Made by a program: the position numbers and the translations under genes
Notes under the pieces: model-generated
What the model saw: the letters and a program-made list of their open reading frames with translations, nothing else
The model's database searches: none
Told to the model about the DNA's origin: nothing
Shown here: positions 35,477 to 46,046 of the stretch, one piece after another
Layout: each line of letters starts with the position of its first letter
Position numbering within the stretch: position 1 is the first letter of the stretch
Assembly (NCBI RefSeq): GCF_964245445.1
Contig: NZ_CAXTNE010000006.1
Location: forward strand, 3,909 to 67,908
Source: an uncultured Nostoc sp.
Lineage (GTDB): Bacteria; Cyanobacteriota; Cyanobacteriia; Cyanobacteriales; Nostocaceae
Direction of reading: 5' to 3'
Length of the DNA: 64,000 bases

Positions 35477-35663
35477 TATAATTGCAGAGATTAGTGGCTA
35501 AGTCAAAATTAATTTTTTTGATGATAGGACTTGTCACTTAATAAGCTTTTGATAACAGTATAGTTATCTGAATCAAGAGTTTGGGAATGAGAATTTTTAT
35601 TAAGCGGCAAGTCAAAATTTAGCTAAAAAACTAAAAATAATAAATATTAATAATTTCTTGGCA

Positions 35664-38600
35664 ATGGATAAACAAGACTTTAATTTATCACCAGCGAAAA
35701 AAGCCCTTTTAGAAAAATGGAAGAGAGGAAATATTCAAGCTGATATTATCCCCAAACGTCAAGTATTTAAAAATATTCCCTTATCTTTTTCTCAACAAAG
35801 ACTGTGGTTTATTGACCAGCTTTATCATGGGAGTTCTTTCTACAATATTCCCATCGCTTTTCATATCAAAGGACAGCTGAATATTAAAGTACTTCAGCAA
35901 AGTCTGAATGAAATTCTCAAACGTCATGAAGTTTGGCGCACAACTTTTAGCGTTGTAAATGGAGAGCCAGTACAGGAGATTGCACCCCAATTAACTTGGG
36001 ATTTACCCATTATTAATCTTGAGCATTTGTCTGGTAAAGATTGGGAATCTGAGGTTAAACAACTTGTAGCAGAGTCAGCGAAAAAACCTTTTAATTTAGC
36101 TAAAGGACTTTTAGTCAGAGCAACTTTACTTCGCTTGAGTGAAGAAGAACACATTTTGCTTGTGACCATGCACCACATTATTACAGATGGATGGTCTTGT
36201 AGTGTGTTCCTGCGCGAGCTGTCAATGCTATACGCTGCTTTCTTGACAAATCAACCTTCTCCCTTACCCGAACTCCCCATTCAGTATGCAGATTTTGCAA
36301 TTTGGCAACGCGATCGCATCCAAGGTGAATTCCTCGCAACCCAACTAAATTATTGGAAGCAACAACTCAAAGCTGAGTTACCTGTACTACAATTACCTAC
36401 ATACCGTCCGCGACCTAAGGTTACTACTTTCAGTGGTGCCAAGCAGTACTTTACATTCTCAAAAGCCCTAACTGACGTACTCAGACAATTAAGCCAGCGA
36501 GAAGACGCGACTTTATTTATGAGTTTGCTGGCAGCATTTAACATATTATTATATTGTTACACAGACCAAGAAGATATCTTAATTGGTTCTCCAATTGCCA
36601 ACCGCAACCGCGCAGAATTAGAAGGGATGCTAGGTTTATTTGTTAATACTTTGGTGTTACGTAATAACCTCAGTGGTAATCCCAGTTTCCGCGAATTTTT
36701 ACATCGAGTCCGTGAGGTGACTCTCGATGCTTATGCACATCAAGATTTGCCTTTTGAGATGCTTGTGGAAAAATTGCAACCCGAACGCCACTTAAGCCGA
36801 AATCCACTTTATGAAATCATGTTTGTCCTGCAAAATACTCCAACGTCTGTGCAGGAAGTGTCTGGATTAACCTTACGTACCTTGGAATTTGATAGTGGAA
36901 CAGCTCAACTAGATATTTTCTTGTCGATATCTGAATCTCAAGAAGGGTTAACAGGGTCTTTGGAGTACAATACAGATATTTTTGATTCAACAATGATTAC
37001 TCAATTTATCAACAATTTCCAAACATTGTTAGGGAATATTGTTGATAATCCAGAGCAGCGCATCAGTGAGTTGTCACTACTAACTGCTTCTGAGCAAGAA
37101 CAACTATTATTTAAATTTAATCAAACTAGTGCTGATTATCCTCAAGATACATCTTTGCATCAATTATTTGAGCAACAAGTAGAATTAACACCTGATTCTT
37201 TAGCGTTAATTAGCCAGTCTGAGAAACTGACTTATCGTCAACTTAACCACAAAGTTAATCAACTTGCACATTATCTACAAAAACAGGGTGTAACAAAAGA
37301 AACGCTGGTTGCCCTATGTGTGGAACGCTCCATAGAGATAGTGACAGGAATTTTAGCTATTCTTAAAGCTGGTGGTGCATACATTCCCCTCGATCCAAGT
37401 TATCCAGTGGAACGCCTGAATTTCATGCTCTCTGATTCCCAAGCATCGCTGTTAATTACCAAGCAAGAGATATTAGAAAAACTATCATTATCTTCGGCTA
37501 AAACCGTTTGTTTAGATATCCAAAAAGATGAAATCGCTCAAGAAAGTTCGGAAAATCCCATTAACATTTATTTATTTGATAATCTCGATAATCTCGCCTA
37601 TATTATCTACACTTCTGGCTCAACTGGAACACCTAAAGGCGTTCTTGGCACTCATCGCGGTACAGTCAACGGCTTACACTGGTTATGGAAAACCTATCCT
37701 TTTACGCAAGGAGAAGTTTGTTGTCAAAAAACAGCTACTAGTTTTGTAGATTCTGTATGGGAAATTTTTGCTCCTTTACTTCAAGGAATTCCTACAGTAA
37801 TTATCAGCAATGCAACTATACTAGACCCGCAACTATTTATAGAAGCTCTGGCACATCACAAAGTAAGCCGTATTATACTTGTACCTTCACTACTAGGCTT
37901 ACTTGTTGATAATTACAGTCATTTGACCAAAAAATTATCGCAGCTAAAACTTTGGATAACTAGCGGGGAAACACTATCTATTAACTTAGCTAAAACTTTT
38001 CGAGAATTAATGCCATTTGTAAAATTAATTAACTTTTATGGCTCCTCAGAAGTTTCCGCCAACGCTACTTACTATGATACTAGTTTATTACAAGAGCAAG
38101 CCAGCAGTGTCCCTATCGGTAGTGCTATTGACAATACTCAAATTTATGTGTTGAATCGTGATTTAAAATTAACACCTATAGGAGTGATTGCAGAACTTTA
38201 TATTGGTGGTGATGGATTGGCGAAGGGTTATTTACATCGTCCGGAATTAACTCAAGAAAAATTTATTGATAACCCCTTTGTTCCTGGAACCAAGCTTTAC
38301 AAAACAGGCGATTTTGTGCGTCATCTAAACGATGGTAGTCTAGAGTATTTGGGTCGTCAGGATGAACAAGTAAAAATTAGAGGTTTTCGAGTAGAATTGG
38401 ATGAAATTACGGCTGCGATCGCCCAACATCCAGATGTACAAGAATCTGTTGTCATTGCCAGCAATGATGCTCAAGAAAATCAGCGTTTGATTGCCTATGT
38501 CGTCACAAATAAACAGGATTTAACTACACAACTTTTGTCCTATTTGCAGCATCAATTGCCTAATTACATGCTGCCATCTGCTTTCGTTGTGCTGGATAAG

Positions 38601-39770
38601 CTCCCACTTACACCTAATGGCAAAGTAGATAAGCGTTCTCTGCCAATTGATGAAGTTATCCGATCAACTACTATCCAATCATTTGTTGCTCCTCGGAATT
38701 TTACAGAATTATCATTAGTAAAACTTTGGGAAAATCTCCTAAATACTAACCCTATTGGGGTAACAGATAACTTCTTCGACTTGGGTGGTCACTCGTTTTT
38801 AGCTGTACGCTTAATGGCTCAAATTCATGACAGATTCGAGCATAATCTTCCCTTGTCTACTCTTTTTGAAAACCCGACAATTGAAAAACTAGCAAGCATT
38901 GTCAGTCAGCCAGCCCGTCAGAGTTCTAATTCTCCTCTAGTAGCAATTAATTCTTCTGGTTCTAAGATACCTTTTTTCTGTATGCATGGTGCTGGTGGAG
39001 GTATTAGTCACTATTTTAATTTATCCCGAAGACTTGGTGAAGATTATCAATTTTACGCTTTGGAAGATACCTTAGAACAAGACAAACCAGAAATTATTTC
39101 AGTAGAAGAGACAGCAACTCGCTACCTCCAAGAAATTCGTAAAATACAACCAAATGGCCCTTATCTTTTAGGTGGTCATTGTTATGGCGGTGTACTTGCT
39201 TTTGAAATAGCGCAACAATTACAAAATAAGGGTCAAACAGTAAGTTTATTAGTTGTCATCGATGCCATACTATCAGAAACACCCATTGAATCTACAGACG
39301 ATGACGATGCAAAATTTTTACTCCGCATCGCTGAATCAATAAAAACCGATAATAATATAGACTTTGTAGTACCTTTTGAAGAACTTCGAGATTTGCCATT
39401 AAATCAGCAACTTCATTTTATTAATCAAAAAGCAAAGTTCATCTTTAGCGATACAGAAATTAACGATTTTCTTCACCATTACAATCTGTTTAAAGCTCAT
39501 GTCCAAGCTATGCGAGGTTATATTCCGCAGATTTATCCAAAAAAAATGACTTTATTCCGAGCAAAGGAGGAAATAATCCATGATTTTGAAAGCCCTGAAT
39601 GGAATACCGACGATCCATTTCTAGGTTGGGAGAAATTTTCAAATCAACCTATACAAATAATTGAAATTCCAGGCGACCATTTTTCAATTTTCGTAGAACC
39701 TTATATTGAAGAATTAGCTAAACGTTTGAAAATTTGTATCGATCATGCTGTGTGCGATCTAAATAATTAA
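35664..39770 (+). CDS. Terminal NRPS C-A(beta-Ala)-T-TE
   Basis: C MHHIITDGWS. A domain SFVDSVWE has Val at the usual Asp235 position; code by eye VDWIISFANK is close to the beta-Ala code VDWVISLADK. T GGHS; TE GGHCYGG and GDHFS. Confidence 0.93.
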   Translation: MDKQDFNLSPAKKALLEKWKRGNIQADIIPKRQVFKNIPLSFSQQRLWFIDQLYHGSSFYNIPIAFHIKGQLNIKVLQQSLNEILKRHEVWRTTFSVVNGEPVQEIAPQLTWDLPIINLEHLSGKDWESEVKQLVAESAKKPFNLAKGLLVRATLLRLSEEEHILLVTMHHIITDGWSCSVFLRELSMLYAAFLTNQPSPLPELPIQYADFAIWQRDRIQGEFLATQLNYWKQQLKAELPVLQLPTYRPRPKVTTFSGAKQYFTFSKALTDVLRQLSQREDATLFMSLLAAFNILLYCYTDQEDILIGSPIANRNRAELEGMLGLFVNTLVLRNNLSGNPSFREFLHRVREVTLDAYAHQDLPFEMLVEKLQPERHLSRNPLYEIMFVLQNTPTSVQEVSGLTLRTLEFDSGTAQLDIFLSISESQEGLTGSLEYNTDIFDSTMITQFINNFQTLLGNIVDNPEQRISELSLLTASEQEQLLFKFNQTSADYPQDTSLHQLFEQQVELTPDSLALISQSEKLTYRQLNHKVNQLAHYLQKQGVTKETLVALCVERSIEIVTGILAILKAGGAYIPLDPSYPVERLNFMLSDSQASLLITKQEILEKLSLSSAKTVCLDIQKDEIAQESSENPINIYLFDNLDNLAYIIYTSGSTGTPKGVLGTHRGTVNGLHWLWKTYPFTQGEVCCQKTATSFVDSVWEIFAPLLQGIPTVIISNATILDPQLFIEALAHHKVSRIILVPSLLGLLVDNYSHLTKKLSQLKLWITSGETLSINLAKTFRELMPFVKLINFYGSSEVSANATYYDTSLLQEQASSVPIGSAIDNTQIYVLNRDLKLTPIGVIAELYIGGDGLAKGYLHRPELTQEKFIDNPFVPGTKLYKTGDFVRHLNDGSLEYLGRQDEQVKIRGFRVELDEITAAIAQHPDVQESVVIASNDAQENQRLIAYVVTNKQDLTTQLLSYLQHQLPNYMLPSAFVVLDKLPLTPNGKVDKRSLPIDEVIRSTTIQSFVAPRNFTELSLVKLWENLLNTNPIGVTDNFFDLGGHSFLAVRLMAQIHDRFEHNLPLSTLFENPTIEKLASIVSQPARQSSNSPLVAINSSGSKIPFFCMHGAGGGISHYFNLSRRLGEDYQFYALEDTLEQDKPEIISVEETATRYLQEIRKIQPNGPYLLGGHCYGGVLAFEIAQQLQNKGQTVSLLVVIDAILSETPIESTDDDDAKFLLRIAESIKTDNNIDFVVPFEELRDLPLNQQLHFINQKAKFIFSDTEINDFLHHYNLFKAHVQAMRGYIPQIYPKKMTLFRAKEEIIHDFESPEWNTDDPFLGWEKFSNQPIQIIEIPGDHFSIFVEPYIEELAKRLKICIDHAVCDLNN

Positions 39771-39788: not shown

Positions 39789-41129
39789 ATGAAACTACCT
39801 CCAGGACCGAAAACTCCTTCTTGGTTGATAGCTCTACAATTTAAGGCTGATCCCTTTGGCTATATGGATACTATTTCCAAACGTTATGGTGATATTGTCA
39901 CTTTAATGTTTGGCTTTACACCAAGAATTTATATCAGTAATCCTTCAGCAATAAAGGAGATTTTTACAAATACCAAGGAAATTGTAGCTGGGGGTGAGTT
40001 GAACCCGGAGTTCGTCTTGATGACAGGAAATCAAGGAGTTCTCCAACTTGATGGTTTAATTCACAAAAATCGACGCAAACTGTTAATGCAGAGTTTTCAT
40101 GGAGCGCGGATGCAAGCCTGTGGGCAACGTATATGCGAACTTACAGAAAAAATTATCAGTCAACAGGCAGTCGCAAAGCATTTTGTTGCATACCCAATAA
40201 TTGAAGATATTACCTTGCGAGTGGGTATAGAAGTTGTAATGGGTTTATATAGAGGAGAGCGCTATGACAAAATTAAGCATTTATTTGTGTCTGCACTTAG
40301 ACATGGAGAATCTCCAGTAAATAAGATTCTTAGCAATATTTTTGGAGAAAGAGATTTAGGTCGATGGAGTCCATATGGTTCTCTCCTTCACCTTCGACAA
40401 CAACTTTTTCAATTGCTATTGAGTGAGGTGGAAGAACGTCGCAAGCAAGCAGATTTTTCACGCGTTGATATGATTAGCGATCTGATATTTGCTAAAGATG
40501 AAACAGGTCAACCACTAAGTAATGAAGAAGTACGCGACCTCTTATTATCGCCTATATTTGCAGCTGGTGATGCTTCCGGAACTGCGATCGCTTGGTCTTT
40601 GTACTGGATTCACCGTTTACCTTATATTCATCATCGCCTGCTATCAGAACTAGACAGCCTTGGTGAAAACCCAGATCCCATGAGCATTGTTGCACTACCC
40701 TACCTCAGCGCAGTTTGTAATGAAGCCTTACGAATTTACCCAACTCAGTTGTTTACATTTCCCAGGCTGGTAGAGTCTCCAGTCGAGGTGATGGGTTACA
40801 AGTTGAATCCTGGTACAATAGTTATTGGTAATATTTATTCCACTCATCAACGCGAAGATTTATACCTTAATCCAAAAGAATTTCAGCCAGAGCGCTTTTT
40901 AGAAAAACAATTTTCTCCCTACGAATTTTTCCCATTTGGTGGCGGCTCTCGGGTTTGTATTGGCGGGACTTTTGCTCTATTTGAAATGAAACTTATATTA
41001 GCAACTATTCTTTCCCGTTATGAATTAGAGCTAGTTAGTCAGCGCCCAGAACGTCCCAAATTTGGAGGTCTAATTTGTTACCCAGCTAGCGGCGTCAAGA
41101 TGGCCGTGCGTGGTCTGCGTCAACATTAA
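39789..41129 (+). CDS. Cytochrome P450 (CYP110-like)
   Basis: KLPPGP N-terminus, EALR (ExxR), PERF, heme motif FGGGSRVCIG. Confidence 0.95.
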   Translation: MKLPPGPKTPSWLIALQFKADPFGYMDTISKRYGDIVTLMFGFTPRIYISNPSAIKEIFTNTKEIVAGGELNPEFVLMTGNQGVLQLDGLIHKNRRKLLMQSFHGARMQACGQRICELTEKIISQQAVAKHFVAYPIIEDITLRVGIEVVMGLYRGERYDKIKHLFVSALRHGESPVNKILSNIFGERDLGRWSPYGSLLHLRQQLFQLLLSEVEERRKQADFSRVDMISDLIFAKDETGQPLSNEEVRDLLLSPIFAAGDASGTAIAWSLYWIHRLPYIHHRLLSELDSLGENPDPMSIVALPYLSAVCNEALRIYPTQLFTFPRLVESPVEVMGYKLNPGTIVIGNIYSTHQREDLYLNPKEFQPERFLEKQFSPYEFFPFGGGSRVCIGGTFALFEMKLILATILSRYELELVSQRPERPKFGGLICYPASGVKMAVRGLRQH

Positions 41130-41215
41130 CGACAGTCATAGCCATCGATTGCTGACTTAGTTTAAAACCTATCTTAAAACCTATCAATTATTTAACATTT
41201 CTCAGAAAAATACCA

Positions 41216-42550
41216 ATGAAACTACCTGATGGCCCAAAAACTTCTCGCCGATTACTCAGTCAATTTGAGACTGATCCCCTTACCTTCATGGATACTATGG
41301 GCGATCGCTATGGCGACATTTTCACTATTATGGCTGATTCAATACCTCTAGTAATAATCAGCAACCCAGAAGGGATGAAGCAGATTTTTACTAATGCAAA
41401 AGAGATTACAGCTTCTGGTAAGTTGAATCAAGGTGGAGAATCAATTGTCGGCAAGAATGGGTTGCTTGCACTAGATGGGTTGCGTCACAGAAATCGCCGT
41501 AAGTTGTTGATGTCACCGATGCGCGAAACTCAGACACAAGAATATGGACAGCATATTTGTAGAGTCACAGAAAAAGTTATGAATCAACTGACTTTAGGTA
41601 AATCTTTTCTTGCTTATCCCACTATGCAAAAGATTACCCTAGAAGTAGTTTTGCCATCATTATTTGGGTTACATCAAGGAGAGCGTTACGAACAATTTCG
41701 ACAACTGTTTTCTAATCTAATAAGTTACGCTCGGTCTCGCTGGCTGGACATCTCTCTGTCCTATCCTTTTCTAAAGAGGGATTTGGGTCCCTGGAGTCCT
41801 TGGGGATACTGGCTTCACTTACAACGACAATTTGACAAACTGCTCCACATCGAAATTGAAGAGCGTCACCAACAAGTAAATGCTTTGCGTACCGATGTAT
41901 TATCAGAACTGGTATTTGCTTACGATGAAACTGGTCAAGCAATGACCTATGAATATATACGAGATTTGTTTCCATCATTGCTATTTGGTGGTCAAGATGC
42001 GTCAGCCACTGCTATAAGTTGGTCTTTGTACTGGATTCATAGTACACCTGGTGTTCGCGATCGCTTATTAGAAGAACTTGACAGTCTTGGTGAATCCCTA
42101 GAACCTGGGAAGATTATTGCATTACCTTACTTAAATGCTGTTTGTAATGAATCCCTACGAATTTATCCAACTCAGGTTGTGACATTTCCACGACTTGTAG
42201 AATTACCAATTGAAGTCATGGACTACAAATTAGACCCAGGTACCGTAGTAAGAGGATGTATATACTTAACTCATCAACGAGAGGATTTATATCCACAACC
42301 AAAGCAATTCAGACCAGAGCGCTTTCTAGAAAAAGAATATTCTCCCTATGAGTTTCTACCATTTGGTGGTGGCGCTCGTCGCTGTCCAGGTGAGTTATTA
42401 GCACTTTTTGAAATGAAACTGGTATTAGCAACAATTCTCTCACGCTATCAATTAGCGTTAGCAGATAAAAGAGTAGAGAAACCTAAGGCTAGGGGCGTTA
42501 ACTATCCTCCTGCTAGTGGCTTGAAGATGGTAATGCTTGGGTCACGGTAA
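41216..42550 (+). CDS. Cytochrome P450 (CYP110-like), tandem paralogue
   Basis: KLPDGP, ESLR, PERF, heme motif FGGGARRCPG. Confidence 0.95.
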   Translation: MKLPDGPKTSRRLLSQFETDPLTFMDTMGDRYGDIFTIMADSIPLVIISNPEGMKQIFTNAKEITASGKLNQGGESIVGKNGLLALDGLRHRNRRKLLMSPMRETQTQEYGQHICRVTEKVMNQLTLGKSFLAYPTMQKITLEVVLPSLFGLHQGERYEQFRQLFSNLISYARSRWLDISLSYPFLKRDLGPWSPWGYWLHLQRQFDKLLHIEIEERHQQVNALRTDVLSELVFAYDETGQAMTYEYIRDLFPSLLFGGQDASATAISWSLYWIHSTPGVRDRLLEELDSLGESLEPGKIIALPYLNAVCNESLRIYPTQVVTFPRLVELPIEVMDYKLDPGTVVRGCIYLTHQREDLYPQPKQFRPERFLEKEYSPYEFLPFGGGARRCPGELLALFEMKLVLATILSRYQLALADKRVEKPKARGVNYPPASGLKMVMLGSR

Positions 42551-42568: not shown

Positions 42569-43945
42569 ATGACTTCACAAAACCAATCTAAAATAAAAAA
42601 GGAGATCCTTCAAGGTAACATCTTAAAACTGATGTTCAAGTTATCAGCCCCTGGCATTCTAGTAATGCTGCTGATTAATATGAATGCTTTTATTGATGCT
42701 CTATTTGCTGGGCAGTTTATAGGAGAAACAGCAATTGCTGGCATATCTTTATCTCTACCACTTACTGCTATCATCGATGGTTTTGCTTACTTAGTTGGAA
42801 CAGGTTCAGCTTCTGTCCTGAGCCAAGCTATTGGTGCTGGAGATATAAAAACTCAGTCCAAAATATTTGGCAATTTAATTATAATGGGTATTTTTATATC
42901 CTTTTTTATTACTATAATTGGCTACAGTTTTAGTGAAGAATTAATTAAATTAATGGGAGGAAGTGGTCAAGTAGCTTTTGTCGGTTCTGAATACTTTAAA
43001 ACTTATATGCTAGGCGCAGTATTTTATATTTTAGCAGTAGCTTCCAACCAACTTATTAAGTCAGAAGGTAAAGTTAGATTAGCTATGACTTTTGCAGGTA
43101 TTTATGTCATTATTAATATAATTTTAAATCCTATATTTGTTGTAGTTTTTCATTGGGGTATCCGGGGAATTGCTCTTGCTACTGTTATTGCTATGATAGT
43201 ATTTTGTATAATAAACTTTATATACTTCTTATCTGGTAAAAGTTCTATTCCAGTGAATCCTAGAAAGCTGGCTCTAGCAATAAATTTACTTCCGAGAATT
43301 TTATCAGTGGGAATGTCAGCATTACTCGCTAATGTTATGGAATTAGTTCAAAATTTTGTTGTTTTTAAATCTATCTCCTATTACGGAACAAATAGTGATA
43401 TTGCTTTCTACGGAGCAACTATAAGATTGACTTTATTAGCATTCATTCCTTTAAATGGATTTGTGCAAGCATTACAACCAGTGATTGGCATAAATTATGG
43501 AGCCAAAAATTATGATAGACTGAAAAAAGCTTATTTTACTTTTATTATTTCTGTGACTGCTTTAGCTGTGTTATTTTGGTTGCCAATGCAATTATCACCA
43601 GAAATATTTTTAAGTTGGCTATTGCCAAATTCGACTTTCACAAACAATGATTTACTCAATTTTCGCGTTTTGAGTTTATTAATACCAACAATAGCTTTTG
43701 TTCCCTTTGGTTCAGTTTTATTTCAGTCTATAGGAAAGGGTAAAACTGTTTCTATAATAATTATTTTAAATAATCTAGTTTTATTTATTCCATTAGTGGT
43801 TATTTTATCAAATTTACTAGGTGTTAGTGGTGTATATTATGGAATAGCTATAACAGACTTTTTACTGATGATTATTGCACTTCTGTTAACATTTATTGAA
43901 TTCAAAAAAATGAATATAAATCATCTCAAAGATAATCATTATTAA
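42569..43945 (+). CDS. MATE family efflux transporter
   Basis: About 12 hydrophobic segments; IDALFAGQFIG, SQAIGAGD, NIILNPIF, GIRGIALAT, QPVIGINYGAKNYDR. Confidence 0.9.
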   Translation: MTSQNQSKIKKEILQGNILKLMFKLSAPGILVMLLINMNAFIDALFAGQFIGETAIAGISLSLPLTAIIDGFAYLVGTGSASVLSQAIGAGDIKTQSKIFGNLIIMGIFISFFITIIGYSFSEELIKLMGGSGQVAFVGSEYFKTYMLGAVFYILAVASNQLIKSEGKVRLAMTFAGIYVIINIILNPIFVVVFHWGIRGIALATVIAMIVFCIINFIYFLSGKSSIPVNPRKLALAINLLPRILSVGMSALLANVMELVQNFVVFKSISYYGTNSDIAFYGATIRLTLLAFIPLNGFVQALQPVIGINYGAKNYDRLKKAYFTFIISVTALAVLFWLPMQLSPEIFLSWLLPNSTFTNNDLLNFRVLSLLIPTIAFVPFGSVLFQSIGKGKTVSIIIILNNLVLFIPLVVILSNLLGVSGVYYGIAITDFLLMIIALLLTFIEFKKMNINHLKDNHY

Positions 43946-44027
43946 ACTATCAATATAATTCCAATTGTATTCATTTTAAATTGTAGTTCTCACACATGCA
44001 TATTTATTCACTATAAAGGTCACAAAA

Positions 44028-44906
44028 ATGCCTCTAAAACATAAAGGTGCTATCGTAATTACAGGAGCATCAACAGGTGTAGGCAGAGCAGCAGCTCTTA
44101 TGCTTGACAAAAAAGGATATCGAGTGTTTGCATCAGTCCGTAAAGAAAAAGATGCTGAATCTCTCAAGAGTGATTCCTCCGAGAATTTGACACCGATTTT
44201 CATGGATATTACAAAAGCAGAAGAAATCAAATCTGCCGCAGATATTGTTTCAAAATCTATTCCTGATGAAGGATTAGTAGGATTAGTAAATAATGCTGGT
44301 CTGTTAGTTGATGGGCCACTGGAGTTTATTTCGCTTGATGATCTGAGATGGCAATTTGAAGTCAATGTTTTTGGGCAAATAGCAGTGACGCAGGAATTTT
44401 TACCGTTAATCCGAAAAGTTAAAGGTCGGATTATTAATATTGGCTCTATCGGAGGAGTAATTTCTGGACCATATATCTCTGCTTTGTGTGCTTCCAAGTT
44501 TGCGTTAGAGGCATTTACCGATGCTCTGAGAATAGAATTACATCCTTGGGGAATCGAAGTTATCTTAATTGAACCAGGCTCAATTGCATCTGCGGCTCCG
44601 GATAAAGTAGAAGAAAGCTTTAGAAAAAATTTTGCCAATATGTCACCTGATGCTAAAGCAATGTATGGAGATACATATAAACTTTTTGTAGAAGATTTAA
44701 TTCAATCAAATCGTGAAGGGATGCCGCCGGAACAAGTTGCAGATGCAATTATAAAGGCTTTAGAAGTCAGGAAGCCTAAAACACGTTATTTCTTATCTAA
44801 GGGGCAGCTAGGTTTAATGCTTGAACTAGTGCTGAAAAAATTTACACCAGACCGTAGTTATGATGCAATGATTATAAAAAGTTTGAATTTAAAACATCAG
44901 ATTTGA
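44028..44906 (+). CDS. Short-chain dehydrogenase/reductase with atypical catalytic motif
   Basis: TGASTGVG, LVNNAG, EVNVFG, IEPGSI; the YxxxK position reads LCASK. Confidence 0.9.
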   Translation: MPLKHKGAIVITGASTGVGRAAALMLDKKGYRVFASVRKEKDAESLKSDSSENLTPIFMDITKAEEIKSAADIVSKSIPDEGLVGLVNNAGLLVDGPLEFISLDDLRWQFEVNVFGQIAVTQEFLPLIRKVKGRIINIGSIGGVISGPYISALCASKFALEAFTDALRIELHPWGIEVILIEPGSIASAAPDKVEESFRKNFANMSPDAKAMYGDTYKLFVEDLIQSNREGMPPEQVADAIIKALEVRKPKTRYFLSKGQLGLMLELVLKKFTPDRSYDAMIIKSLNLKHQI

Positions 44907-45005: not shown

Positions 45006-46046
45006 ATGATTTCATCTGATTCAAAACCTAATAATACAGACTTTCAAATCAGTCCGATAGAATGGGTACATGCTTACTGGGTTTCACGGTGTATCTATGT
45101 CGTCGCTAAACTTGGTATTGCTGATTTGCTAAAGGATGGTTCTCAACATTGCGATATTTTAGCTGCTGCAACAAATACGCATAGTGATTCTCTATATCGA
45201 GTTTTGCGGGCGATCGCCAGTATCGGAATTTTTGCGGAGACACAAACTCGATGCTTTGAGCTAACACCATTGGCAGATTGTTTACAAAGCAACGTTCCTG
45301 ACTCAATTCGTGCTATGGCTATTTTCCGAGGTGAAGAGCATTACTATAAATCCTGGGGAAATTTAATGTATTGCTTACAAACTGGTAAAAGTGCCTTTGA
45401 AGATTTGTATGGTATGGATTTGTTTGAATACAATGAACAGAATTCCAGCCGAGGAGAAATCTTCGACCAGGCTATGACTTCATCAAAAGATTCTTATACC
45501 GAACACCTGGAAGCTTATGATTTTTCGTCAATTAATAAGCTAATAGACGTTGGTGGTGGTAAAGGGAGCTTTTTAGCTGCTGTACTCGAAGCTAATCCTA
45601 CTATGATAGGAGTATTGTTCGATCAGGCAGAAGTGATTAATAGAGCCAAGGATTCACAAGAAATAGCATCCGTTATTAGTCGTTGTCAGCTTGTAGGAGG
45701 TAGCTTTTTTGAAGCTCTGCCACAAGGAGGAGATGCTTATGTTCTTAAACATATTATTCAGGACTGGGATGACGAGCGATCGCTTGCTATTCTTCAACGT
45801 TGTCATCAAGCCATGATAGAGCAAGGACGGGTTTTAGTGATAGACTACGTACTTCCTCCTGCTAACGAGTTTTCAGGAAGCAAGTTTATAGATGTCAACA
45901 TGTTAGTAATGTGTCCAGGTGGACGTATTCGTACTGAAGCTGAGTTTGAAGATTTATTTAAATCAGCAGGTTTCAAACTTACTAAAATTTATCCAACACA
46001 ATCGGATGTTAGTATTATTGAAGGAGTTAAAATAGATATCAATTAA
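45006..46046 (+). CDS. Family-2 O-methyltransferase-fold SAM methyltransferase with dimerisation domain
   Basis: AKLGIADLL dimerisation region, LIDVGGGKG, GSFFEALP, KHIIQDW, GGRIRTEAEF. Confidence 0.9.
   Translation: MISSDSKPNNTDFQISPIEWVHAYWVSRCIYVVAKLGIADLLKDGSQHCDILAAATNTHSDSLYRVLRAIASIGIFAETQTRCFELTPLADCLQSNVPDSIRAMAIFRGEEHYYKSWGNLMYCLQTGKSAFEDLYGMDLFEYNEQNSSRGEIFDQAMTSSKDSYTEHLEAYDFSSINKLIDVGGGKGSFLAAVLEANPTMIGVLFDQAEVINRAKDSQEIASVISRCQLVGGSFFEALPQGGDAYVLKHIIQDWDDERSLAILQRCHQAMIEQGRVLVIDYVLPPANEFSGSKFIDVNMLVMCPGGRIRTEAEFEDLFKSAGFKLTKIYPTQSDVSIIEGVKIDIN

Follow-up and report, generated by a model that had tools for sequence, protein, structure and literature searches.

Leucine at the catalytic tyrosine position of a classical short-chain dehydrogenase/reductase: hallmark of a large clade and of an optional gene in a Nostocales biosynthetic cassette

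Introduction

What can a classical short-chain dehydrogenase/reductase (SDR) do once its catalytic tyrosine has been lost? To our knowledge, the Ser-Tyr-Lys mechanism is taken as near-universal in classical SDRs, and those without the Tyr tend to be written off as inactive. One conserved example from an unrelated context, HSDL1 (“inactive hydroxysteroid dehydrogenase-like 1”), a eukaryotic classical SDR in which the Tyr is replaced by Phe, is considered inactive. The question is raised anew by a gene at positions 44028 to 44906 (+ strand) of a 64,000-nucleotide stretch of DNA from an uncultured Nostoc sp. (contig NZ_CAXTNE010000006.1, positions 3,909 to 67,908; hereafter, the window). A reading of the letters (the original prediction) had noted Leu at the catalytic Tyr position of the gene product, and had offered three explanations: an imine/iminium reductase, a non-redox enzyme with the SDR fold, or an SDR using a Tyr shifted four residues upstream.

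The analysis reported here reveals that the Leu (Leu153) is the hallmark of a large, old clade and not the oddity of a single gene. That it is inherited, and that the gene is under selection, bound to a biosynthetic cassette and optional within it, we hold to be very probable. With respect to function, we give a probability of about one half to a functional NADP(H)-dependent tailoring enzyme that would transfer hydride without a Tyr acid, a reading drawn from sequence comparison.

An SDR with an incomplete catalytic tetrad

The gene product matches the Pfam family PF00106 (adh_short) over residues 8-193, scoring 139 bits (cut-off, 26.6) with an E-value of 1.8e-40. A close homologue of the SDR is present in 91 of 389 genomes of the same family; 20 kb was read around 39 of these. 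In addition, 152 distinct close homologues were aligned, among which Gly13, Ser15, Gly17, Gly19, Arg38, Asp60, Asn88, Asn89 and Lys157, all present in the window SDR, are invariant. The gene and its residues are as follows.

44028..44906, + strand: gene for a classical SDR of 292 amino acids with Leu at the catalytic Tyr position (open reading frame with stop-free translation; PF00106)
44061..44084, + strand: glycine-rich cofactor motif TGASTGVG, residues 12-19 (all four numbered residues invariant)
44139..44141, + strand: Arg38 (CGT), after strand beta2, opposite Arg37 of 17beta-HSD1 (invariant); presumably the contact for the 2'-phosphate of NADP, a role that we take from the family
44289..44300, + strand: NNAG motif, residues 88-91 (both Asn invariant; Gly91 becomes Val, Tyr or Cys in deeper cassette subclades)
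44310..44312, + strand: Asp95 (GAT), an acidic residue specific to the clade, within the sub-pocket next to the catalytic centre and opposite Leu96 of 17beta-HSD1 (Asp in 35 of 40 cassette orthologues)
44364..44366, + strand: Asn113 of the catalytic tetrad, kept (123 of 152 homologues have Asn; some cassette subclades have Gly, Ser or Asp)
44445..44447, + strand: Ser140 (TCT), the catalytic serine, kept (22 of 40 cassette orthologues have Ser, 16 have Ala and 2 have Gly)
44472..44474, + strand: Tyr149 (TAT), the upstream Tyr, unconserved (among 40 cassette orthologues, Tyr in 21 and Phe in 19)
44484..44486, + strand: Leu153 (TTG), at the canonical position of the catalytic Tyr (Leu in 40 of 40 cassette orthologues)
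44496..44498, + strand: Lys157 (AAG), the catalytic and ribose-binding lysine (invariant)
44595..44600, + strand: Ala190-Pro191, in the loop after the PG motif, replacing Ile-Trp of Tyr-type relatives and opposite Phe192 and Met193 of 17beta-HSD1

Around codon 153 the protein reads GPYISALCASK. The spacing Ser140-x12-Leu153-x3-Lys157 is that of the canonical S-x12-Y-x3-K (13 and 4 residues). HMMER alignment to solved structures places Leu153 opposite Tyr155 of human 17beta-HSD1 (PFNDVYCASKFALE versus PYISALCASKFALE) and opposite the catalytic Tyr of DHRS9, and a profile built from Leu-type relatives aligns identically. Of the classical tetrad Asn-Ser-Tyr-Lys, Asn113, Ser140 and Lys157 are there, and the Tyr position is occupied by Leu153; the other features by which a classical SDR is recognised (Rossmann fold, TGxxxGxG cofactor motif and NNAG) are all present. 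Translation and alignment thus bear out the original prediction that Leu replaces the catalytic Tyr via the codon TTG, two base changes from TAT or TAC, and the cofactor motif, NNAG, Ser and Lys that it had described as retained can all be read in the protein. No named NCBIfam SDR model reaches its cut-off with this protein; among these models, which include PRK06182 and PRK05993, the best is PRK06914, with 203 bits against 320.

The AlphaFold2 model of the protein (mean pLDDT 94.9, pTM 0.92) consists of alternating strands and helices, and every structural match to it is an SDR, the best being DHRS9 (9b2f; template-modelling (TM) score 0.86) and 17beta-HSD1 (TM score of about 0.80). The same two proteins are the closest solved relatives by sequence (DHRS9, E 1.9e-45; 17beta-HSD1, E 3.5e-27). 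Human DHRS9 (SDR9C4; PDB 9b2f) and 17beta-HSD1 (SDR28C1; e.g. PDB 1iol, 1fdt) share with the window SDR the glycine motif, the Arg after beta2, NNAG, the Asn, Ser and Lys, the CASKFALE helix and the C-terminal helical lid; however, both have the Tyr and act as ordinary dehydrogenases of hydroxysteroids or retinoids. Searches of solved structures with the window protein and with the Leu-clade profile returned Tyr-type enzymes only, a search of the ESM Atlas returned generic SDR clusters only, and a literature search outside subscription journals found no publication or structure for a classical SDR with Leu for Tyr.

Could the Tyr four residues upstream take over? Tyr149 is indeed present, but it is not shifted into the canonical position by the alignment, and the motif of the orthologues is LCASK rather than YCASK; the opposite outcome on either point would have overturned the replacement. 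In the AlphaFold2 model, Tyr149 sits in the loop ahead of helix alphaF, which starts at residue 151. As position 149 is a mixture of Tyr and Phe among the orthologues, and mostly Phe in Tyr-type relatives, the Tyr149 hydroxyl cannot be essential. Tyr149 as the replacement acid was therefore rejected on the strength of the 19 orthologues with Phe, and the shifted-Tyr explanation falls with it.

An antisense open reading frame of 220 amino acids (43976-44638, - strand) overlaps the SDR gene and extends a little upstream of it. As the frame of the + strand is conserved and under selection, the antisense frame is probably spurious.

Inheritance of Leu153 and selection on the gene

The 120 best homologues are mostly from Nostoc, Scytonema, Fischerella, Chroococcidiopsis and their allies, and essentially all of them, down to about 50% identity, have Leu at position 153. 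In the alignment of 152 homologues, this position is Leu in 133 and Tyr in 19. The reading frame is intact in 40 of 40 cassette genes, and the codon for Leu153 is TTG in 22 of these and TTA in 18. Among 16 pairs drawn from across the cyanobacterial branch, dN/dS was 0.11-0.31.

To see how far the replacement extends, representatives of 50%-identity clusters from 1.8 billion proteins can be considered: 16 of 150 have Leu or Ile at position 153. (The top-scoring of these cluster representatives, P0121-P0124 and P0135, are tandem double-SDR proteins of 580-600 amino acids with a catalytic Tyr in both halves.) In a maximum-likelihood tree of 90 rows, which came from a quick search, has no inferred root and includes column 153, the 39 Leu/Ile rows form a single clade (SH-aLRT 95), with 22 of them in a cyanobacterial branch (support 95) and the other 17 in its sister branch (support 98); one more Leu at position 153 arose separately. 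The hosts of the sister branch include Sorangium, Polyangiaceae, Mycobacterium, Nonomuraea, Paenibacillus mangrovi, Chloroflexota, Planctomycetota and others. The window SDR has all the characters of the clade: Leu or Ile at the Tyr position, no Ile-Trp after the PG motif, an intact cofactor site, and a place within the clade in the tree.

Members of the sister clade (PFGGxL..SK) resemble the window SDR in having lost the Tyr and the Trp while keeping the cofactor site intact; they differ from it in lying outside biosynthetic clusters and in having no Asp95, and they are uncharacterised. Often a TetR regulator lies ahead of them and a CMD/AhpD-like protein behind (loci L091, 9283-11605; L107, 9908-12293; L095, L099, L113 and L135), an arrangement that suggests a small regulated unit. 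The Tyr-type bacterial relatives (PFxGPYxASKFA ... PGSIATPIW) are 40-50% identical to the window SDR and have the same length and motifs, but keep the Tyr and the Ile-Trp pair and lie outside the cassette (locus L088). The genome of the window has one close Tyr-type paralogue, with 44% identity, which is on another contig (C34) and not in a cluster.

Changes in the pocket around the lost tyrosine

Which other residues changed with the Tyr? Discriminating positions were taken from 52 Leu/Ile versus 48 Tyr sequences. Those that separate the two groups best are 153 (Leu versus Tyr), 191 (Pro, Val or Ala versus Trp) and 190 (Ala versus Ile), and further ones are 194 (Val versus Gly or Ser) and 95 (Asp versus Gly or Ala). 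Asp95 is confined to the cyanobacterial branch and is absent from the sister branch. By HMMER alignment, residues 95, 153, 190 and 191 of the window SDR correspond to Leu96, Tyr155, Phe192 and Met193 of 17beta-HSD1. In that enzyme, Gly94, Leu95, Leu96, Asn152, Tyr155 and Phe192 form one apolar sub-pocket at the catalytic centre, and Leu96 and Met193 are among the contacts with the substrate (PMC3153478). Since the four positions map to this sub-pocket and these contacts, the clade-specific changes cluster around the lost Tyr. Relative to 17beta-HSD1, the Tyr has become Leu, the equivalents of Phe192 and Met193 are Ala-Pro, and the equivalent of Leu96 is Asp. Judged from the alignment, the surroundings of the lost Tyr have become less bulky and, in the cyanobacterial branch, have gained a carboxylate.

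Further residues have changed in cassette subclades that are 49-58% identical to the window protein. In these, Ser140 has given way to Ala (16 orthologues) or Gly (2), some have Gly, Ser or Asp for Asn113, NNAG has become NNAV or NNAY, and there is Cys at 142; Lys157 and the cofactor contacts are unchanged and dN/dS is no higher.

The biosynthetic cassette

The window is the tail of a hybrid cluster of nonribosomal peptide synthetase (NRPS) and polyketide synthase (PKS) genes. The gene order is NRPS/PKS genes, class III aminotransferase, decarboxylase dependent on pyridoxal phosphate, methyltransferase, a C-A-T-TE module (ending in a thioesterase, TE), two cytochrome P450s (P450s), MATE exporter, SDR, and a methyltransferase with the O-methyltransferase (OMT) fold. 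The genes closest to the SDR are as follows.

35658..39770, + strand: terminal NRPS module C-A-T-TE, the start of the conserved cassette (Pfam; upstream of the SDR in 39 of 39 related loci)
39789..42550, + strand: two cytochrome P450 genes (PF00067, E about 1e-70; conserved in the cassette)
42569..43945, + strand: MATE efflux transporter, directly upstream of the SDR (PF01554; conserved in the cassette)
45006..46046, + strand: OMT-fold methyltransferase, directly downstream of the SDR (PF00891, E 1.9e-46)

In a scan for promoters and terminators, no terminator-like site above background was found between the MATE, SDR and OMT genes on the + strand. At the sequence level, the OMT-fold methyltransferase reads KHIIQDW, where the motif of its family is HDW; thus, it lacks the His.

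In all 39 related loci, the Leu-type SDR belongs to the same cassette, downstream of the terminal NRPS and of one or two P450s. Nostoc punctiforme NIES-2108 has a 97% identical near twin (L121). Most cassettes have a sucrase/ferredoxin-like (Suc_Fer-like) protein and a MATE exporter, and some have a TauD-type oxygenase. The Suc_Fer-like protein (PF06999, E 2e-34; e.g. L051, 11792-12823, + strand) adjoins the P450s in most cassettes, may be a redox partner, and is absent from the window and its two closest relatives. The flanks of several cassettes hold a gene of the penicillin-amidase family (L053, 2832-4982, - strand), an ABC exporter (L051, 14532-16304, - strand) and a Peripla_BP_2 protein (L051, 17660-18685, - strand), a set that recalls siderophore or prodrug-maturation loci; the window has none of the three.

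The gene that follows the Leu-type SDR is one of two kinds in 39 of the 40 cassettes: in 23 it is an OMT-fold methyltransferase, and in 16 a canonical SDR with Tyr, about 295 residues long. The second kind is found in cassette subclades more distant from that of the window (loci L070-L087, e.g. L071, 14245-15144, + strand; Tyr motif GIYxSSK), downstream, where the subclade of the window has the OMT; the Leu-type SDRs of these subclades are also without the catalytic Ser. One locus, L052 (genome G396, contig C27), has two tandem OMT-fold copies after its Leu-type SDR.

An optional gene

Is the SDR needed by the cassette? CYP110-type P450s are present in 380 of the 389 genomes. Twenty cassettes with a close P450 orthologue and no SDR match were sampled from the loci of the top P450 matches, and 19 of the 20 are truly without the SDR; their order (among L169-L188) is NRPS, P450, P450, Suc_Fer-like, MATE. 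Because these 19 sister cassettes lack the gene, the SDR step is optional, and the idea that the SDR is essential to the cassette or to P450 function was rejected on the same count. The SDR-less cassettes, which occur in many Nostocaceae, are natural minus-SDR variants. Three of the 19 have the OMT and none has the canonical SDR. This pattern of co-occurrence fits a decorating step, the product of which feeds the next enzyme.

Proposed function and its alternatives

The preferred reading is that of a functional tailoring enzyme. Transfer of hydride without the Tyr acid is suggested because the gene is selected, the NADP(H) site is kept more strictly than the catalytic residues, and the gene is confined to the pathway and dispensable within it. 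The history would be as follows. In an old clade, the catalytic Tyr would have been replaced by Leu or Ile and the surrounding pocket rebuilt. One branch in Nostocales would then have been recruited as an optional tailoring gene alongside a terminal NRPS with TE, one or two P450s, usually the Suc_Fer-like protein, and the MATE exporter. The enzyme would pass hydride from NADPH to a substrate that needs no Tyr hydroxyl as general acid.

The favoured candidate substrate is a cyclic imine or iminium, which might arise by reaction of a free amine with a beta-keto group left unreduced in the peptide-polyketide. With the non-polar Leu153, Val94 and Ala190 on its flanks, Asp95 could be the proton donor or could anchor the cation, and the resulting amine may be methylated by the adjacent His-less OMT-fold enzyme, in which QDW is compatible with N-methylation. 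There is a precedent for such an Asp in the D-type imine reductases (IREDs), in which an Asp is the proton donor and its pKa is raised by non-polar neighbours (PMC7540600). The setting of Asp95 resembles this, but true IREDs have another fold (that of the beta-hydroxyacid dehydrogenases), whereas the window protein matches only SDR-type Pfam families and only SDR structures. The mapping of Asp95 to the sub-pocket, together with the co-travelling His-less OMT, lends the imine option modest, indirect support. Even so, we regard the imine or iminium version specifically as unlikely. A still fuller proposal we hold to be unlikely as well: a natural Asp-type imine/iminium reductase on the classical SDR scaffold, with the Ile-Trp removed, Asp95 (in the sub-pocket next to the nicotinamide) as donor or anchor and the secondary amine product N-methylated by the His-less OMT, within a broader Leu/Ile clade of Tyr-independent SDR catalysts.

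Other acceptors could also do without the Tyr: a conjugated C=C, which would give a stabilised enolate, or a substrate with its own hydroxyl. The latter is the case for eugenol synthase, an NADPH reductase with the SDR fold that has the Lys without the Tyr and reduces a quinone methide, the position of the Tyr hydroxyl being filled by a hydroxyl of the substrate itself (PMC1991597). Like the window SDR, eugenol synthase and the PIP family keep the equivalent Lys without the catalytic Tyr, but they belong to another branch of the SDR superfamily, the NmrA-like (atypical) SDRs; the window protein scores E 0.0075 and 16.3 bits against the NmrA-like cut-off of 27.

Several points weigh against a hydride-transferring tailoring enzyme, or against parts of it. 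The imine-reducing SDRs noroxomaritidine reductase (NR) and Zt_SDR keep the Ser-Tyr-Lys, with Tyr as the proton donor (PMC7540013, PMC7540600); the type they represent, with Ser-Tyr-Lys and flanking Tyr, Cys and His (PMC7540013, PMC7540600), does not accommodate the window SDR, which is without the Tyr. Asp95 cannot explain the loss of Tyr throughout the clade, because the sister clade and 5 of the 40 cassette orthologues do not have it. The genomes behind the co-occurrence counts are related, so that the counts are not independent of one another; they suggest a link with the next gene. Finally, the erosion of Ser140, Asn113 and NNAG in the deeper subclades could mean that a non-catalytic protein is slowly decaying. 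Another reading of this erosion is that a Tyr-independent site was retuned further.

The decay of a non-catalytic protein leads to the alternative that survives best, although we consider it improbable: an NADP(H)-binding pseudoenzyme acting as a scaffold, partner or sensor, for example as a subunit paired with the canonical SDR or another cassette enzyme, with the cofactor in a structural role. Three of the four tetrad residues erode in the cassette clade (every member has lost the Tyr, 18 of 40 the Ser and some the Asn), a canonical Tyr-bearing SDR is encoded two or three genes downstream in 16 cassettes, and the structural matches include a blue fluorescent protein that binds NADPH and has the SDR fold (3p19). 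Yet the subclade of the window has no canonical SDR in its cassette, the only close Tyr-type paralogue being that on contig C34, and selection is equally strong in the subclades that lost the Ser and in those that kept it. Moreover, the changes of the clade are concentrated in the substrate sub-pocket and include an added charged residue, which looks like retuning rather than decay.

Lower in our estimation is non-redox chemistry on the SDR fold, in which a cyclase, isomerase, epimerase, dehydratase or decarboxylase would bind NADP(H) without consuming it or would use it transiently. Loss of the general acid with strict retention of the cofactor site would suit such an enzyme, as would the rebuilt pocket, and there are SDR-derived enzymes with altered catalytic residues that carry out pericyclic or other non-standard chemistry. 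However, nothing indicates a specific reaction, SDRs that work by transient oxidation (epimerases and dehydratases) normally keep the Tyr, and a gene that is optional in its cassette fits decoration better than formation of the scaffold.

An ordinary ketoreductase or alcohol dehydrogenase that draws its proton from elsewhere (Tyr149, Ser140, Lys157 via water, or Asp95) is marginally less plausible again. The presence of Asn113, Ser140 and Lys157 in the subclade of the window would allow for it, but Tyr149 and Ser140, as given above, are each replaced in nearly half of the orthologues (19 and 18 of 40, respectively), and the Tyr was never regained across the Leu/Ile clade, despite the simple solution with Tyr that is available in Tyr-type relatives. 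A pseudogene, a decaying gene or an artefact of annotation or sequencing, as a missing catalytic residue might at first imply, is effectively refuted by the 40 intact frames, the low dN/dS, the synonymous Leu codons and the invariant cofactor residues, and was rejected.

Significance

The window SDR belongs to a large, old clade in which the Tyr has been lost while every cofactor contact has been kept and purifying selection maintained. Proteins with the SDR fold and without the Tyr are known from other branches, which makes the finding moderately surprising; its value is in the size, age and conservation of the clade. Within the biosynthetic cluster, the Leu-type SDR adds to several enzymes with inherited non-canonical active sites. 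The coexistence in Nostocales strains of cassettes with and without the gene amounts to a natural presence/absence experiment on the role of a Tyr-less SDR. The clade could yield a new scaffold for the biocatalytic reduction of C=N or C=C bonds and, if the proposal holds, the Leu/Ile clade, which spans many phyla, would be an unrecognised class of Tyr-independent SDR catalysts.

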